Part shown: piece by piece, positions 1 to 6,866 of the stretch
How positions within the stretch are numbered: the first letter of the stretch is position 1
Layout of the letters: each line of letters begins with the position of its first letter
DNA from: a virus
Lineage: Duplodnaviria; Heunggongvirae; Uroviricota; Caudoviricetes
Strand: one strand, 5' to 3'
Length of the DNA stretch: 6,866 bases
Virus record (IMG/VR): IMGVR_UViG_2529292909_000014
Notes under the pieces: generated by a model
Told to the model about the DNA's origin: nothing
Database searches by the model: none
Seen by the model: the letters and a program-made list of their open reading frames with translations, nothing else
Position numbers and translations under genes: made by a program

Positions 1-206
1 TTATTGAAATTCAAGGGTAAAGGTTGCCGAAGCCCTCACCAGTCCCGGATTGACGGACTTCTGAGTTGACTTCAGACGAGCGGAGTAAGGCAAAATATTG
101 TTCTGTTCTGGTACCAGTGGGATCCACTGCATCCCGGCATGAAGATCATTCAGTTTCACCGGACGCATATTTGCGTCCAATATTTCTATTATAGCGCGGC
201 GATTTT

Positions 207-273
207 TTTGATACCGATTTGCATTTCATTTGATACCGCTGAAAAACGCCGATACGCAACTTATTTGATACTA
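207..273. repeat. Three direct copies of TTTGATAC (starting 207, 229, 264) plus a degenerate CCGATAC (249), downstream of the mom-like gene
   Basis: Read directly: tttgataccgatttg / tttgataccgctg / ccgatacgc / tttgatactaaatcggcg. Function unknown. Confidence 0.35.
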
Positions 274-317
274 AATCGGCGCTTTTCTTTTGAGTTTTAG
301 AATGAGTTTTTAAGCGT

Positions 318-1055
318 TCATTCACTCTCTTTCAAACCAGTTTTAACTGTTTGTGGTTTTGGGTAAGGCTGGACTTTGAATAGCTTTGTGTTAAGGCGTT
401 TTCTGGCTCTCTTGTCCAGAAACCGGATGTAACGAAACTGACGGAATTTATGAACACTGGCTCTGTCGATATTAGCCCGCAGATGTTCACCTCGCTGTCC
501 TCCTCGTTTGATTGCATTCTTGCAAATCTCGTGATACCACTCGCCATCAAGTTCATAGAATGTTGTTTCATGACTGCCTACATAATCAAAATTGCTTGCC
601 TGGTACACGACACCAAGACAGCCACAACGCTCATCTGCAAACGACTGAACCCACTGCACCTGCGGATAAAGTTGTCTGATTAGTTTGAGCGCGTAACTGA
701 TTGCCCTTGATTCGGAGTTTCTCGGCATACAGTCATGCAGCCATAACCGGTTAAGCTCCATATATTCGCGGTTCTGCGTGCCAGTTACGACGCGTGCACC
801 ATTGTTTGGATTAAGGGCATAACCCCATTGCATTACGCCAACCAGCTCCCGTTCTGAAAATATGCCCAGATGAAGGTAGGAATTATTTACGAAACGATGG
901 CTGTAATGTTTATTGACGACGACCAGCCGGGCCAGCCAGCAACTTATTGTCTCAACCCGTAACTCACGGGAGCCATAACCGACGATATTGTCGTTATAGT
1001 GAATAAGTTCAGGCGTGCTGATGATACGGGATGTAACTTGCTTTCTGTTCCCCAC
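318..1055 (-). CDS. mom: Mom-like DNA modification (anti-restriction) protein, about 245 aa; proposed GTG start at 1055
   Basis: Long minus-strand ORF immediately downstream of and overlapping the com homologue, as in phage Mu. The track ORF starts at ATG 1250 but would overlap com entirely; there is no in-frame ATG after com. GTG at 1055-1053 is preceded by AAGGA about 9 nt upstream and gives a Mu-Mom-like size. Identity rests on com linkage and size, not on aligned Mom sequence. Confidence 0.6.
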
Positions 1056-1209
1056 GACAGGATTTCCTTGTGTATGTGGGGTGCTCTGTGGCGCTCTGAG
1101 ATGTGATTTGATTGAGGGTTTTACAGCGCGGACATTTAACTTCCAGATAACTGAAGCTGGCTCGTGCCAGTAGCTTGTTACAATGTCGGCACCGTATGTT
1201 TCGATACAT
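1009..1209 (-). CDS. com: Com-like zinc-finger translational activator of mom, 66 aa
   Basis: [14 protein letters not shown]...EVKCPRCK...EHPT matches the phage Mu Com pattern (IRCKNCNKLL...IRCPRCK...EHPT) as recalled. Strong SD AGGAGG about 8 nt upstream of ATG 1209. The 81-aa track ORF from 1254 is an in-frame upstream extension without an RBS. Confidence 0.85.
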
Positions 1210-1252
1210 GGCCGCATAACCTCCTGCTTTGTTGTTGATATCTTTATCACTC

Positions 1253-1277
1253 AATCGATCGACAAAAACGATCGATT
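1253..1277. promoter_or_regulatory. Perfect 9-bp inverted repeat AATCGATCG-N7-CGATCGATT with two Dam (GATC) sites, 44 bp upstream of com; third GATC (TGATCA) at 1339-1342
   Basis: Palindrome read directly. In Mu, mom transcription depends on Dam methylation of upstream GATC sites (established knowledge), so a methylation-sensitive operator is a reasonable inference. Confidence 0.45.
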
Positions 1278-1465
1278 TGATTTATTTAATTGATACAACA
1301 AATAACACGAAATGTCATTAGCGAAAATTTATGAGTTTGATCACTAATTTTAAACGGTGCTGTAACGCATAAGTGCTGAATGATTGTACATTTGAATACC
1401 GCAAAGCAAACAAATCAACTAATTTATAGAAGTCAATTGGTTAATTGCCAGCGTAAGAGGCTGCT

Positions 1466-1759
1466 ATGGACAATCATGTAACGACGAGAAATCGAAAAAT
1501 GATTGAAAATGCGGAAATCTATAATGATTATTTTTCCGATTATTCAGATGCCTGCAAATACAGTTCGAGTGCGGGAGAGTTCATATGCTTCAACTTTTTT
1601 ATTAAATCTTATGTTTTTCCTCCACAGCAAGAAGATGGAGGTGTGCCACCTCCTGAAATCACTTTGCACCGTATAGCCTCCGTCTCAATGATGGAGCAAC
1701 AGGCTAATGAGCTGTATAGCATTCTGGGAACGATTCTACAAAAGCGTGAATCGGACTAA
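1466..1759 (+). CDS. Hypothetical protein, 97 aa, divergent from com-mom
   Basis: ORF with SD AAGAGG 6 nt upstream of the ATG; no recognisable motif. Confidence 0.5.
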   Translation: MDNHVTTRNRKMIENAEIYNDYFSDYSDACKYSSSAGEFICFNFFIKSYVFPPQQEDGGVPPPEITLHRIASVSMMEQQANELYSILGTILQKRESD

Positions 1760-1893
1760 TGATACCGGTTCATTTGCCTGCCCGGATGGGGAAGCAGGAT
1801 TGACTGCTCCATAAGCAGCTATATTTCTGAATACGAAATACTATCCAGCGATTACATATGGCTGGATAGCGGCAAAGATGTTTTCATTAGTGT

Positions 1894-1921
1894 CAAACCG
1901 GCAGAGGACACCACCGGTTTG
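1894..1921. terminator. Stem-loop CAAACCGG-N12-CCGGTTTG 5 nt after the stop of the 84-aa gene; a second hairpin CTATCCAGC-N11-GCTGGATAG lies at 1841-1869
   Basis: Inverted repeats read directly; no clean U-tract on either strand, so terminator function is uncertain. Confidence 0.3.
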
Positions 1922-1926
1922 TATTG

Positions 1927-2181
1927 TTACATCATGGTACTGTCAGTTCCGGGCTGAGCCGGGTCTGGTTGCTCTGGCTGCGCGTCGGTTTTCGGCTCAT
2001 TATCAGCATCACTGGCCGCAACTGCTGGCCCAATAAGTTTTGCCAGCACTTCATCAACGTAAGTGTCGATTTGTGCCTCAAAATCCTTGCGGACCTGCGC
2101 TTTCAGCAACTTATTTACTTCACCGGAATACAGTGCCTGTTTTACCAGGTCTTCAGTGACGGTGCCTTTAATTTCTGGCAT
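1927..2181 (-). CDS. Hypothetical small acidic protein, 84 aa
   Basis: Strong SD AAGGAGGA 6-7 nt upstream of the ATG; helical N-terminal half, acidic and Pro-rich tail. Confidence 0.65.
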   Translation of the reverse strand: MPEIKGTVTEDLVKQALYSGEVNKLLKAQVRKDFEAQIDTYVDEVLAKLIGPAVAASDADNEPKTDAQPEQPDPAQPGTDSTMM

Positions 2182-2216
2182 GTATATCCTCCTTATGCGG
2201 GAATAAAGCCCTGCAA

Positions 2217-2420
2217 TCAGGGCTGGGTCGGGTCTTTTGGGAGCGGAGTTACCTGCGCTGTTTTACTGAGTTTTTCAGCTGCTGCGTCCTCAATTTTGCG
2301 GCGAACATAATTTCTGATGGCCTTATAACCACCACTCACCAGATATAACGCACATACTGCCGTGCAGAAATACAATAAATAAGCTGTAAAAATGTCATTA
2401 TCCCTCCCAATTATTGACAT
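2217..2420 (-). CDS. Hypothetical small single-pass membrane protein, 67 aa as written; start uncertain
   Basis: Hydrophobic stretch FTAYLLYFCTAVCALYLV followed by basic residues; sits 35 nt upstream of the 84-aa gene. ATG 2420 has no good SD, whereas ATG 2398 has SD GGGAGGG but is one base out of frame (see findings). Confidence 0.4.
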   Translation of the reverse strand: MSIIGRDNDIFTAYLLYFCTAVCALYLVSGGYKAIRNYVRRKIEDAAAEKLSKTAQVTPLPKDPTQP

Positions 2421-2494
2421 GGTGTTGACACCGGTAATATCTGTTAGGTAAAAAGGTGCACTGCATTTTTTGCTTTGGATATAACGATCTTTTT

Positions 2495-2535
2495 GCCGCC
2501 GGTTTCTTGTTTTCCCTTACCGGCGGCATTTTTTT
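2495..2535 (+). terminator. Rho-independent terminator, plus orientation: GCCGCCGGT-N15-ACCGGCGGC followed by T7
   Basis: 9-bp GC-rich stem followed by ATTTTTTT on the plus strand; on the minus strand the stem is followed by AAAAAG, so it is unidirectional and opposite to the flanking genes. Confidence 0.6.
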
Positions 2536-2542
2536 ATCCTGC

Positions 2543-4597
2543 TTACGCGTTATTCACTTCCACCACGATACTGTCAATCAGTACCGGGTAAGTCGCATTT
2601 TTAGTGATATCGGTCACGCGCAACTTGTCTGCCGTAAACGTGCCGACCGGAGACTGCGACAGCATGAATGGTGTCCCGTCCTTACCATCAATGACCGGCG
2701 TCACCTCAATACTGTTGTTACCGGCAAAACGGAAGCCCAGCGTATGCCATTCGTTATTAAATGCGCCGAATGACCCCAGCTTCGTGTTCTGCGCCGTGTT
2801 TCCTTTGTGATACATCACGTTAAGGTCTGTGGCATCGCTCTGTACGTAGAACGATGCCAGCAGGTTATGACCGGCATTTCCTTCCAGAGTAACCCCTTGC
2901 GGCAGGGCAGAAACCGGCCAGTACAGCGCCAGTGCGTACTGATTAGCCGTAAGCGCGCCATCGAGTTTAAAACGACAACTGACAAGACCACCTTTACCCA
3001 GCAGGTCCGCACCATTACCAGCATCATGCTCAAGGTACCAGGGGGCTCTTCCTGTTTCCTTGGTCAGTTTCATTGCCTTACCCCCGCTGGCTCCGGCATC
3101 ATCCACGATTTGAGCCTTGCCACCTCCGGCAGCCCAACCCTGTGGTGTCAACCGTCCTTCAGACTCAGATGCCCGGTAAGCAAATAGCGTACTCATCGTC
3201 GTGGTGTCTGCGGGTGGCGTGGACGGTTTTGATGGTGTATCAGGTGACGGCTTCTCATCCGGTGGTGTCACGGTCTGCCCGCGCATCAGTTCAGCCGTGC
3301 GCCCTGCATGGAGCATAATAGCTGAGGCCAGACGGTCTGAAATGACGCCCCTGCGTGCCCATGAGCTGAAATGGCTGTCACGCTGTGTCGAAACAAAACT
3401 GCCCTGGGTTCGGGATGCTGCACCGTAATACCCGACAGCCACAATATCCGGGTCTTCCGCCGGAGCATTCGTTGGCGTGCTCTGTCCATTCTCATCCGTC
3501 AGGAACGGTACAAAGAAAATTTTCTGTGCTTCCTTGCCTTTGTAGCCACCGTATACTGCCTCATATTTATCGGTGCCAGCGTTTTTCCAGTAATACGTGG
3601 TATCACCGCAAATCCACGGCACCGTGGTGGCATTTCCACTCACGCACTGCGCAGCAAGCGGAGCCAGGTCAGTTCTGAACTGCTGAACCATGGCCGTGAA
3701 TAAACTATTATGCTGCTGGCTTCCTGAGGCAAGGTCTGCCTCTCCCTGCATCCAGACCACAGCCAGAAGTTTGTTTTCGGGTTTTTCGCCAGCGCGACTT
3801 TGGTGCGGCTTACCAGGTCCTGATACAGAGGTTTACCGGCCCCCCAGCGTGAAGAATCAGCGGAAGCACCGCTGGCCTCACTGAATGAGCCGTCGGCTCC
3901 AGTGGTGAATGCTGACCCGCCACGACAACAGGGCACCAGAAGTATCCCGGCATTCTGTGGGATATAGGGAAGCAGTTTTTTGGCAATATGCAACCCCTGA
4001 CCGACAGTTCCCGTACTGGCCTTTTGCCAGATCAGCTTTCGGGTGGTTTATCCCGCTCATATCCTGAACATCATGCAGGCAGTGGTCTGCCGGAATGATG
4101 TCGTTGTATGTACACGACGTACCGTTGGGCGTTACCGTACTGCGGCGTGCCAGTTGCTTAATGCGTGGGTCCGGGCGGTCAAACGAATCCGGTAACGGCA
4201 GCCCCTCGCCGTAGGCCATGCCATTTGACTGACCCGCGAGAATGACAACAAAGTAATATTCCGGCTCTGAACTGCTGCCATTCGTGCTACCGGAAGGCCC
4301 GGCGTTATCCGGTGCATTCCAGTCGGAGGGCGTGAGCGTTCCGGCCACGTCAGATGTGATTGGAATGATGCCAGTCACGCCTGAACTGGTGATTTCTGCA
4401 CTGGGATTACCGGATACCGGCATTACCCATAATGGCTCTTTCGTGCTGAAGCGGATCACGCAGTCTGCGAAGGTGATCCCCCCTTTATTACCCGAAGGGC
4501 GGAAAGGGCTTTCAATAAATGCCACCGTGCCACCGGCAACCTTGACTGAAAACTCTCCGGGCATGGCGGAGAGCATTTTCCACTTGGAGTCTGACAT
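2543..4597 (-). pseudogene. NanS-like sialate O-acetylesterase (SGNH/SASA family) with N- and C-terminal extensions; reading frame broken twice
   Basis: Track ORFs 3878..4597, 3640..3993 and 2543..3760 join into one protein carrying NanS-type motifs (ILAGQSNGMAYGEGLPLPD, VPCCRGGSAFT, VVWMQGEADL, GDTTYYWK, NAPAEDPD, SHFSSWARRGVISDR). Frame breaks: a 1-bp insertion near 4008-4012 and a 1-bp deletion in the T-run 3774-3777. Confidence 0.8.
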
Positions 4598-4672: not shown

Positions 4673-4702
4673 CAAAAAAGCGTCACGGTACTTTTGGTGA
4701 CG
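4673..4702 (-). terminator. Possible terminator at the end of the invertase gene: CGTCAC-N10-GTGACG followed by CTTTTTTG
   Basis: 6-bp stem overlapping the invertase stop codon, followed by a U6 tract on the minus strand; the stem is short. Confidence 0.35.
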
Positions 4703-5253
4703 GAGCTGGTGAGGCAGGAAAATAACGATAAAGGGTGGAAAGGCCAATATCAAATATCAGTGCGATTTGTTTACGGGACTCGCCATTAGCCAGCAAACGG
4801 GCGATTTGCTCCCGCTCTTTCTCTGTCAGTTTCTGAGGTCTGCCGCCATGACGCCCTGAGCACGGGCAGCAGCAAGACCCGCGCGTGTACGTTCAATAAT
4901 GAGTTCCCGCTCCATTTCCGCCAGCGCGCCCATTATATGGAAAAAGAAACGTCCCATGGGAGTGGATGTATCAATATTGTCCGTAATGCTGCGGAAGTTA
5001 ACGCCGCGTTGCCGGAGTTCTTCTGTTAAAAGGACAAGGTGCTGCATACTGCGTCCAAGGCGATCCAGTTTCCAGACCAGCAGGGTATCCCCTGGCCGGA
5101 GTCGCTTTAATGCGCGTTTAAGTCCGGGACGCTCCCTTGTCTTACCGCTTATTCTGTCTTCGAAAACAGCTCACATCCTGCACATTCCAGCGCATTTCTT
5201 TGTAGCGCCGTATTCTGGTCATTTGTTGACACCCTGATATACCCAATCAGCAT
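4683..5253 (-). pseudogene. Hin/Gin/Pin/Cin-family serine DNA invertase, disrupted by two 1-bp deletions
   Basis: Three frames read MLIGYIRVSTNDQNTALQRNALECAGCE / FEDRISGKTRERPGLKRALKRLRPGDTLLVWKLDRLGRSMQHL...FFFHIMGALAEMERELIIERTRAGLAAARAQG / GRHGGRPQKLTEKEREQIARLLANG..., together a full-length invertase. Deletions lie near 5161-5170 and 4850-4860. SD AAGGA upstream of ATG 5253. Confidence 0.85.
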
Positions 5254-5318
5254 ACGATTTCCTTATTATAAAAAGCCGGAATTGTCGCATGAGGAATAAA
5301 ACAGAGTTAATCCTGGCT

Positions 5319-5344
5319 TTCCTGAAAACCTCGGTTTACGGGAA
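5319..5344. other. Invertase crossover site, left: TTCCTGAAAACC-TC-GGTTTACGGGAA
   Basis: 26-bp imperfect palindrome; the left half differs from the hixL half-site TTCTTGAAAACC at one position and the whole site resembles gix. It lies 66 bp upstream of the invertase start. Confidence 0.7.
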
Positions 5345-5400
5345 ACGGTAAACAGGGCGGCGAATGCTCTGCCATCGGACGGCACCGCCGTTGCCGCGAA
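5333..5400. repeat. Inverted repeat, left arm (68 bp, one mismatch to the right arm)
   Basis: The reverse complement of 6580..6647 matches 5333..5400 except position 5368; patchy similarity continues inward to about 5451. Confidence 0.85.
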
Positions 5401-5692
5401 TAGACTCGCCACCCCAAGAAATATTAATGGGGTTCCCTTTGACGGGACGAAGGACATAAACATCACTTCTGGTATAACACAGCAGGATGCGGATTCCCGA
5501 TATATCCAGGATATCAGGCTGGGAGCAGAGAACAGGCAGGTAATGTACGGTGGGGCATATTACTCTGCGTACGGTAATGTTATGGCAGGCCTGCAGATTG
5601 ACAGTAAAGTTGATGCTTCAAACGATTTTATAGCATTCAGACCCCTGCAAAAATTAGTCGGAGGTACATGGATTACGGTATCTCAGTTATAA
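5342..5692 (+). CDS. Silent alternative tail-fibre C-terminal cassette (no start codon; expressible only after inversion fuses it to the constant part)
   Basis: Plus-strand frame is open from the crossover site to TAA 5690-5692 and encodes ...[40 protein letters not shown]...; no ATG or RBS at its 5' end; followed 51 bp later by tfa. Confidence 0.65.
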   Translation, partial: ETVNRAANALPSDGTAVAANRLATPRNINGVPFDGTKDINITSGITQQDADSRYIQDIRLGAENRQVMYGGAYYSAYGNVMAGLQIDSKVDASNDFIAFRPLQKLVGGTWITVSQL

Positions 5693-5743: not shown

Positions 5744-6265
5744 ATGGAACTAAAAAATATAACCCGTTATTATCCTGAAAATATGCCATATGGTAATAAT
5801 GTTCAGTATTTCCAGAGTGAAGATGGTAAGGATTTCTACGAATCCCTGCCATTATTCACCAAAAAATATAAACTTTGCATAACACCTGACAGCGGCGTTA
5901 TCTGCTCAATATCACAGGACGCCTCGGCGCTGTATCCTGCGGGGTTTTCTGTGGTTGAGGTCGATGAACTCCCTGAAGGCACGGATATTTCAGGAAACTG
6001 GAAGTTTGATAATGGCATAATCTCCCGTATTCCGGTTAACTACGCAAGAAAACTGGAAGCAATGCGCCAGTCATATCTTAATCAGGCATATGAAAAAATT
6101 AATGACTGGAGAACGGAGCTACAACTGGGCACCATCAGCGATGAAGACAGAGCAGCACTTACCCAATGGATGGCATACATCAGTCAGGTGAAGAAAATGG
6201 AACTACCCGCCATTAAAACAGAAGCTGAATTTAACGCCATTAAATGGCCTGAGCAGCCACAGTAA
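5744..6265 (+). CDS. Tail-fibre assembly protein (Tfa/U family), 173 aa
   Basis: SD CAGGAGGA 6 nt upstream of the ATG; C-terminal ...DWRTELQLGTISDEDRAALTQWMAYISQV...IKWPEQP fits the conserved Tfa C-terminal pattern. Confidence 0.85.
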   Translation: MELKNITRYYPENMPYGNNVQYFQSEDGKDFYESLPLFTKKYKLCITPDSGVICSISQDASALYPAGFSVVEVDELPEGTDISGNWKFDNGIISRIPVNYARKLEAMRQSYLNQAYEKINDWRTELQLGTISDEDRAALTQWMAYISQVKKMELPAIKTEAEFNAIKWPEQPQ

Positions 6266-6296: not shown

Positions 6297-6866
6297 TTAT
6301 ATACTTGCAGCCGTCACCCATGCTCCATTTAACAGATACTGCAACGGCCGGTAATACACGCCGCCGACGTTATCTGCCGTATTCTTACCGACATCCTGTA
6401 CTTTAATTCCGGTAAGAACATTGCCGCCCCCCAGATTCAGATCCCAGCTTTCCCATGTTCCGGGCATATGTGCGGTCACCGACCCCAGTCTTATGGCGGT
6501 TACTGTTCCTGATGAGATAGTGATATCCTGCGTCCCGTCAAAGGGAACACCATTAATTGTGTGGGCATTTGCCAGCCTGTTCGCGGCAACGGCGGTGCCG
6601 TCCGATGGCAGGGCATTCGCCGCCCTGTTTACCGTTTCCCGTAAACCGACGTTATCGATAAAAGCCCCTTTATCCGGAATGTCTGCGCCGTTCTGCTCCC
6701 TGCGCAGGTAACGGTTATCACCTTCGCTTTTGCTGTAAACATCCAGATTATTACGGGCGGTTCCCTTATTCTCCAGGTCGGCGAGATTCTGATCCTTCGC
6801 CAGGGCATTAACGTCAGCGGGACCAAGACCGTTTTTTGTGGCAAGCGTCCCCAGACCAAGATAACC
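6297..6866 (-). CDS. Tail-fibre protein, 3' part (5' end beyond the window), carrying the currently expressed tip
   Basis: Minus-strand frame is open from the window edge to TAA 6297-6299: [54 protein letters not shown]...[42 protein letters not shown]...AASI. Typical tail-fibre motifs; the crossover site is embedded at codons GLRE. Confidence 0.85.
6580..6647. repeat. Inverted repeat, right arm (68 bp)
   Basis: Reverse complement of 5333..5400 with one mismatch. Confidence 0.85.
6636..6661. other. Invertase crossover site, right: TTCCCGTAAACC-GA-CGTTATCGATAA
   Basis: Inner half is identical to the left site's inner half in inverted orientation and the core dinucleotide is complementary; the outer half has diverged. 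Lies inside the tail-fibre coding sequence. Confidence 0.65.

Follow-up and report, generated by a model that had tools for sequence, protein, structure and literature searches.

Bacteriophage Mu and its relatives D108 and SfMu carry the com and mom genes at the genome's right end. The Mom enzyme of Mu moves glycine from Gly-tRNA(Gly) onto N6 of adenine in double-stranded DNA, and the glycine adduct rearranges to N6-carbamoylmethyl-adenine (PMC13219725). In this 2026 study four residues of Mu Mom, R111, S124, D149 and R151, were found to be essential, and five others, W48, H58, Y59, Y159 and W181, to be important. The Com protein of Mu binds a short hexaloop hairpin with the motif CC(N)2-3GAG, beside a "translation inhibition structure" whose stem holds the GUG start codon of mom (PMC6483171). 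Further upstream, Mu has a cluster of three GATC sites (18 and 13 bp apart), which makes up the OxyR site, at 78-109 nt from the com ATG, and between this cluster and com are found the C-activator dyad TTAT-N6-ATAA (C-box) over the -35 region, a T6 run in a spacer of 19 bp and the -10 hexamer TAAGAT.

Related arrangements have been described with other enzymes. In the systems of FluMu hin1523, Pnme1 nma1821 and Hia5, com and a translational-control region also precede a DNA-modifying enzyme at the right end (PMC3299994). These systems carry N6-adenine methyltransferases, and portability of the control module has already been reported for such FluMu-type prophages (PMC3299994). Mu-like prophages such as Sp18 were noted to carry mom and its regulators (PMC3299994). 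Switches involving OxyR and Dam are furthermore known from agn43 (flu) of Escherichia coli and from gtr of Salmonella phage P22, where they bring about phase variation of a surface trait in growing cells. One OxyR dimer half-site of P22 gtr has a GATC at either edge, the two being 13 bp apart, and methylation by Dam abolishes OxyR binding (PMC2909390). The number of GATC sites differs between these switches, agn43 having three and gtr having four in two pairs.

Location at the right end of a Mu-like prophage

The stretch of DNA analysed here (the window, 6,866 nucleotides) begins with host sequence. Its first 189 positions match the E. coli fimbrial gene ydeS with 100% identity, the gene ending at 189. 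From 190 on the window is 99.8-99.9% identical to a prophage that about 20 complete E. coli genomes carry at other places in the chromosome. The near-identical prophage has a Mu-like gene set, with genes for a transposase, Gam, a Mor-family activator, lysozyme, Mu-type head and tail proteins and an invertase, together with an invertible tail-fibre segment. Therefore com and mom are located where phage Mu carries them, and by homology this is the com-mom operon which a Mu-like prophage, inserted in E. coli ydeS, has at its right end (Table 1). The genomes differ in what precedes the operon. In Mu gin directly precedes com, whereas in the window about 3.4 kb of extra genes lie between the invertase gene and com. 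The Mor-family activator encoded by the prophage (WP_000852373.1) is strongly diverged from Mu C.

Compared to its near-identical relatives the window has five single-base indels (positions 2377, 3774, 4008, 4854 and 5163), which break the invertase gene, a DUF6645 gene and a DUF1378 gene. All five lie in or adjoin short homopolymers and may be sequencing errors. A related prophage (L007) has IS66 insertions and a frameshifted transposase. A 7-mer, CCGCAAA, faces the plus-strand open reading frame at 1466, which could be chance.

Table 1 Features of the com-mom region, in window coordinates
Feature	Position	Strand	Basis or remark
Prophage right end, downstream of mom	190..317	.	homology to prophages begins at 190
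Four GATAC-containing repeats within 190..317	210, 232, 251, 267	.	
mom, 245 aa, GNAT fold, GTG start at 1055	318..1055	-	Pfam, identity to Mu Mom, structure 8bv8, RefSeq 738-nt CDS
Mom residues, Mu = window: R111=R103, S124=S116, D149=D141, R151=R143			
Mom residues, Mu = window: W48=W40, H58=H50, Y59=Y51, Y159=Y151, W181=W173			
com, 66-aa predicted CCCC zinc ribbon	1009..1209	-	Pfam PF10122, alignment with Mu Com
Translation-inhibition hairpin	1050..1081	-	RNAfold and comparison with relatives
Com-target-type hairpin GCGC-CACAGA-GCAC, containing CC-ACA-GAG (CC(N)3GAG)	1081..1094	-	covariation and published motif
com Shine-Dalgarno AGGAGG, 10 nt before the ATG	1220..1225	-	read from the sequence
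Candidate -10 region of the com-mom promoter: TATCAA (1240-1235) or TAAAGA (1246-1241)	1235..1246	-	
Palindrome AATCGATCG-N7-CGATCGATT with two Dam sites	1253..1277	.	exact inverted repeat
Proposed single OxyR dimer site ATCGTTTTTGTCGAT	1272-1258		dyad ATCG-N7-CGAT form, bracketed by the GATC pair
Possible second OxyR half-site ATCAATTAAATAAAT	1280..1294	-	weak match to the consensus (6/10), located 7 bp upstream of the first
Third GATC	1339..1342	.	present; no sign of function

The Mom enzyme and its start codon

The initial annotation had proposed, from the arrangement of the open reading frames, that a Com-type zinc-finger protein and a Mom-like protein of about 245 amino acids form the signature arrangement of the Mu mom operon. 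This proposal is borne out for both genes. The product of the longer frame matches the Mom profile PF25680 of Pfam over its entire length (profile positions 1-202 of 202) with 261.2 bits, compared to a cut-off of 27.1 (E=7.8e-78), and a search against Mu Mom, as had been suggested, gave 77% identity. Comparison with the crystal structure of Mu Mom (8bv8) gave an E-value of 2.4e-123 and no gaps. As a sequence alignment, it also runs ungapped across the Mom-specific, helix-turn-helix-like insertion in the GNAT core (Mu residues ~175-209). The window protein is longer by a C-terminal extension of 12 amino acids. All nine residues on which the activity of Mu Mom depends are identical in the window protein (Table 1). 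The protein is, on this evidence, a member of the Mom family and a predicted tRNA(Gly)-dependent adenine-modifying enzyme; it thereby differs from the methyltransferases of the FluMu type, being a true Mom.

The mom frame is open from 1250 and its stop codon ends at 318. Between the com ATG and the conserved N-terminus of Mom the GTG at 1055 is the sole start candidate, in agreement with the earlier reading that the gene has no in-frame ATG after com and probably starts with this codon. In the alignment with Mu, GTG 1055 coincides with the GUG from which the 231-amino-acid (delta-10) form of Mom is made, and it lies within a conserved hairpin (see below). Near-identical genomes in NCBI/RefSeq have both coding sequences annotated alike, with a mom gene of 738 nt that starts with GTG. 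A sister prophage (L002; H102) in which mom has been swapped for a C5-cytosine methyltransferase gene has the new gene joined at the same GUG, which independently supports GTG 1055 as the start.

Com and translational control of mom

The com gene is located immediately upstream of mom and its 3' end overlaps mom by 47 nt, compared to 50 nt in Mu. Its product matches the Pfam family Zn_ribbon_Com (PF10122) with 48.2 bits (cut-off 22.9, E=7.5e-13) and is 44% identical to Mu Com. Careful alignment of the cysteines had been named as decisive for the zinc-finger assignment; C7, C10, C26 and C29 align with all four cysteines of Mu Com. The 66-amino-acid product is thus identified, by homology, as a Com-type zinc-ribbon protein with a predicted role as translational activator.

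The hairpin that was expected to occlude the start of mom was found by RNA folding at 1081-1050. CCCCAC (1081-1076) pairs with GUGGGG (1055-1050), so that the GUG start codon is part of the 3' arm, and the Shine-Dalgarno sequence of mom, AAGGA (1069-1065), is paired in the inner stem. A 38-nt piece folds with -12.6 kcal/mol (RNAfold, z=-3.4). Only such local hairpins stand out: longer RNA windows and folding of the whole region gave structures no better than those of shuffled sequences (z about -0.2). A scan of the window against Rfam gave 0 family matches. Comparison with relatives showed that the arms of the hairpin recur with very different loops in Mu and in L010, L013, L054-L057 and L059; those sharing these arms include one locus each from Edwardsiella and Scandinavium as well as several viral contigs. 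In a marine locus (L016) the pair has changed in a compensatory manner to GCCAC/GUGGC.

Directly 5' of this structure, and abutting it, lies a second hairpin with a stem of 4 bp, which matches in motif and position the Com site defined in Mu (PMC6483171). Among 10 distinct lineages compensatory changes were found at all four base pairs, and 92.5% of the cells were paired, compared to at most 65% in slid controls. The window stem itself has one C.A mismatch; the stem is fully paired, GUGC/GCAC, in a close relative (L033). The region shares with Mu both the GUG start in a CCCAC/GUGGG hairpin and the adjoining hexaloop hairpin with CC(N)3GAG. The sister prophage with the C5-cytosine methyltransferase has retained com, both hairpins and the first three codons, and the replacement of mom in this prophage shows the control module to be portable.

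It is proposed that com and mom are transcribed as one messenger, com first and then mom. The inhibition hairpin would lock the ribosome-binding site and GUG start of mom. Com would recognise the CC(N)3GAG hexaloop hairpin just 5' of it, and this binding would open the inhibitory structure, so that Mom would be made only after Com has accumulated. Mom would then transfer glycine to adenine, and the resulting N6-carbamoylmethyl-adenine would block many restriction enzymes.

A conserved palindrome with two Dam sites

A perfect palindrome with two Dam sites had been noted upstream of com and is indeed exact. Its GATC sites are located at 1257 and 1270, 13 bp apart. The third GATC is also present; its distance from the nearer palindrome GATC, given as about 80 bp, was slightly loose and measures 69 bp. 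This third site is kept only in the closest lineage; the sister lineage, in which homology to the window stops at ~1318, does not have it.

By itself the palindrome is not statistically exceptional. A perfect 9-bp inverted repeat with a loop of 3-12 nt was found in ~17% of Markov-shuffled windows, and GATC-N9-GATC in 18 of 200 shuffles. A chance origin was rejected on the basis of conservation and not of these statistics. Among 33 distinct com-mom loci from several genera, most have a GATC pair with 13-bp spacing upstream of com. Loci of Escherichia, Edwardsiella, Symbiopectobacterium and Pantoea and several viral contigs have conserved the pair, and it was kept in most of the enterobacterial upstream regions in this set; the GATC cluster is absent from the marine, non-enteric com-mom loci among the 33. 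In two relatives one GATC has been lost but the half-site is retained, as with ATCGTTTGTATCTAT in L013. A short-query BLAST search of the control region against phages returned only a sister Mu-like element and weak short matches.

The palindrome aligns with the region of GATC2 and GATC3 of Mu, with the same 13-bp spacing inside a homologous AATCGATCG...GATCGATT block. At the position of Mu GATC1 the window reads AATT, and its cluster consists of two sites where Mu has three. The palindrome core is furthermore identical at 21 of 23 positions to the OxyR/Dam switch core of E. coli agn43. The proposed OxyR site ATCGTTTTTGTCGAT has the same form as ATCGTTTATATCGAT of agn43 and ATCGCTTGTATCGAT of gtr, i.e. 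a dyad half-site ATCG-N7-CGAT bracketed by two GATC sites 13 bp apart, and the window has one such pair. The likeness to Mu GATC2/GATC3 and to agn43 supports the reading of the palindrome as a pair of Dam sites. The palindrome is most likely one OxyR dimer site that is sensitive to methylation and would be blocked by Dam.

A generic OxyR consensus is not discriminating here, since the palindrome site scores 7/10 and many other matches score equally. A second half-site may be located further upstream (Table 1). When it is included, the match to the 37-bp OxyR consensus is 13/20, which is the joint top score in the window, tied with an unrelated site. Its AATTAA(T) core recurs at the same position in Mu, L010, L054 and L056.

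Promoter layout

The expectation of a Mu-like module held for the genes and failed for the promoter, where the palindrome would lie on or beside the core promoter and not upstream of a C-activator site. Only 44 nt separate the end of the palindrome from the com ATG, and the GATC pair lies 51-64 nt from this codon, whereas the proximal GATC of Mu is found 78 nt upstream. Neither the C-box TTAT-N6-ATAA nor the T6 run of Mu was found on the com strand between 1210 and 1470. A standard promoter scan detected no canonical sigma-70 promoter on this strand, and two candidate -10 hexamers are therefore given (Table 1). Close relatives vary in the sequence that separates the palindrome from the com Shine-Dalgarno element, which together with the outcome of the scan makes the transcription start uncertain. 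In five sister variants a hexamer (T/C)ATCA(A/T), located at 1240-1235 in the window, is found at a constant distance from the GATC pair, and this distance equals that between the mapped -10 of P22 gtr and its own pair. If TATCAA is the -10, the window pair would lie at about -46/-33, in the manner of gtr. Better -10 hexamers (TATACT, TATAGT and TAGATT) occur 7-9 nt after the pair in L054-L056 and L010. Together with the window, the Edwardsiella locus (L010) and the viral contigs L054-L056 form a second architectural class, with the pair at 51-67 nt from the com ATG.

With either candidate -10, the OxyR site would cover the -35/spacer region. Since the C-box and T6 run are absent and the site is close to com, it would, unless it belongs to the leader, overlap the core promoter in the way seen at P22 gtr. 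The palindrome would act as one OxyR dimer site, with a Dam site on either side, that gates transcription of com-mom. The unmethylated site is expected to bind OxyR and to cause repression, and the fully methylated site would be left unbound. At ~20-50 bp upstream of the likely transcription start, OxyR would directly occlude RNA polymerase, as at P22 gtr.

Alternative explanations

The whole of the above, a com-mom operon with a start hairpin opened by Com, adenine modification by Mom and transcription gated by OxyR and Dam, is considered very probable as one explanation. The palindrome might instead be the binding site of the prophage's own late activator of the Mor/C family, just upstream of and over the -35, which is considered improbable. 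The dyad-symmetric site bound by Mu C is located just upstream of the -35 and overlaps it (PMC4461284), and with the Mu C-box missing the palindrome lies roughly there with respect to either candidate -10. A different site is also to be expected for an activator so diverged from Mu C. However, no second copy of the palindrome was found in 44.6 kb of sequence that includes the near-identical prophage. Being single-copy, it is specific to com-mom and not a general late-promoter element. A different box, YCCGCAAAWCCWGCCCC, is common to the upstream regions of the prophage genes lys and I. It is based on two sites and was detected neither upstream of com nor at the P-gene region; its absence upstream of com neither proves nor excludes dependence on the Mor-family activator. 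Moreover, the palindrome aligns with the OxyR region of Mu and not with the Mu C site, and the near-match in agn43 belongs to a chromosomal gene without a phage activator.

Even less probable is that the palindrome acts as RNA, either as a leader hairpin in a transcript from a farther-upstream promoter (e.g. near TACAAT, 1388-1383) or as an intrinsic terminator on the plus strand. A terminator scan did flag it on the plus strand, with a T-rich tail, and no good promoter was found between the palindrome and com. Its stem has only 4 G-C pairs in 9, though, and upstream of it there is no plus-strand gene to terminate. An upstream promoter would not be conserved in the sister lineage, which lacks homology past ~1318, and among relatives conservation is seen in the GATC tetramers and their 13-bp spacing, not in the overall strength of the stem. 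It is hardly credible that the module is an inactive relic, left intact by chance in a decaying prophage as the five disrupting indels and the damaged L007 element might suggest, since com, mom and the control region (318-1342) are 100% identical to NZ_CP103972.1 and do not differ from the L001 prophage, all catalytic residues of Mom have been kept and the indels are of a type that sequencing errors may produce.

Within the preferred reading, gating by OxyR and Dam, it has also been speculated that the moved Dam/OxyR site and the lost C-box have left com-mom wired like the agn43 and gtr switches, with heritable ON and OFF states in lysogens. This is regarded as improbable. In contrast to agn43 and gtr, the target here is a phage late function that is reported to be toxic, and even Mu mom has yet to be shown to phase-vary (PMC2909390). 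If true, a subpopulation of lysogens would carry Mom-modified host and prophage DNA, and modification would not be a strictly late lytic function.

Distribution and significance

The module was found in 233 of 5426 complete E. coli genomes (~4%), O157:H7 strains included, at 90-100% identity. In these genomes the genes have been named mom and Com by automatic annotation. The com-mom module of this prophage is the textbook anti-restriction module of Mu and as such already known. The sole element that is mildly new is the compressed promoter architecture. It is proposed that the Dam/OxyR site can be placed either upstream of the activator site, as in Mu, or on the promoter, as in the window lineage. 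The latter layout raises the question of how a toxic gene is silenced in dam+ lysogens without the C-box and T6 spacer. The value of the locus is furthermore comparative. Conservation across genera is seen for both hairpins, that of the start codon and that of the Com target, with covariation in the Com-target stem, and the Com-controlled start region has been reused for another modification enzyme in a sister prophage.

Exchange of the enzyme gene behind com

In a sister Mu-like prophage (L002 2165-3416, minus strand), com and its control region are kept, with 92 % identity to window 1042-1318, while the place of mom is taken by a gene for a C5-cytosine DNA methyltransferase of 350 amino acids (Pfam DNA_methylase, E=2e-42). 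The methyltransferase gene starts at the GUG shared with mom, within the same hairpin, and the junction of the swap lies a few codons past this start. The combination of com with a C5-cytosine DNA methyltransferase instead of mom was also found in H102 (NZ_CM129862.1).

The com leader and the palindrome in other phages

In three viral contigs with com-mom loci (L054, L055 and L056) the 5' leader of com carries a short covarying hairpin directly before the com Shine-Dalgarno sequence, in the forms GCCAC-CUUCCA-GUGGC and GCCG-CCUCCA-UCGGC. The com leader of the window lacks this hairpin and has CAA repeats instead, the copy number of which is variable (L046, another com-mom locus). A 24-nt match to the palindrome upstream of com (95.8 % identity) is located at 8738-8761 in the 34.5-kb Escherichia phage Chuche, inside an unannotated stretch. 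It may be a further Dam/OxyR-type site.

Genes and repeats around the com-mom module

Invertase and com are separated by about 3.4 kb in the window (1466-4597), a stretch that is absent from Mu. The 97-aa ORF in this stretch matched no Pfam family, and part of the DUF6645 gene (3744-4240) shows about 76 % identity to Escherichia phages of 33-40 kb. Since it is placed between the convergent 97-aa ORF and DUF826 gene (ends at 1759 and 1927, respectively), the second inverted repeat may be a bidirectional terminator.

Features of the window
Feature	Position	Strand
GATAC-containing repeats (4)	210, 232, 251, 267	
97-aa ORF	1466-1759	plus
Second perfect 9-bp inverted repeat, CTATCCAGC-N11-GCTGGATAG	1841-1869	
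DUF826, DUF1378 and DUF6645 protein genes	within 1466-4597	minus
Long inverted repeats (each about 150 bp, 75-87 % identity)	5315-5482 and 6508-6666	

Compared to near-identical prophages, the window has five single-base indels (2377, 3774, 4008, 4854 and 5163), all inside or beside a short homopolymer. As a result, the DUF6645 gene, which encodes 684 aa in relatives, falls into two parts (2543-3760 and 3878-4597), and three ORFs stand in place of the gin-like invertase (about 4683-5253). The DUF1378 gene is altered as well. These indels could represent genuine decay or sequencing errors. The long inverted repeats enclose a tail-fibre assembly gene (5744-6265), an arrangement that resembles an invertible tail-fibre region of the G-segment type and adjoins the broken invertase.

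In a related prophage with a Mor-family activator (L007), YCCGCAAAWCCWGCCCC is common to the upstream regions of the lysozyme and head-protease genes (31370-31386 and 23183-23199), at equal distance to the downstream sequences of both, and is a candidate site of its Mor/C-type activator. The window has a CCGCAAA 7-mer at about 1399-1405, facing the plus-strand ORF at 1466.

The prophage end (window 190-300), TATAGCGCGG..., was found at two independent insertion sites, those of the window and of L002, indicating that it begins with TA, whereas the Mu ends have TG. The four GATAC-containing repeats near this end look like transposase-binding sites.
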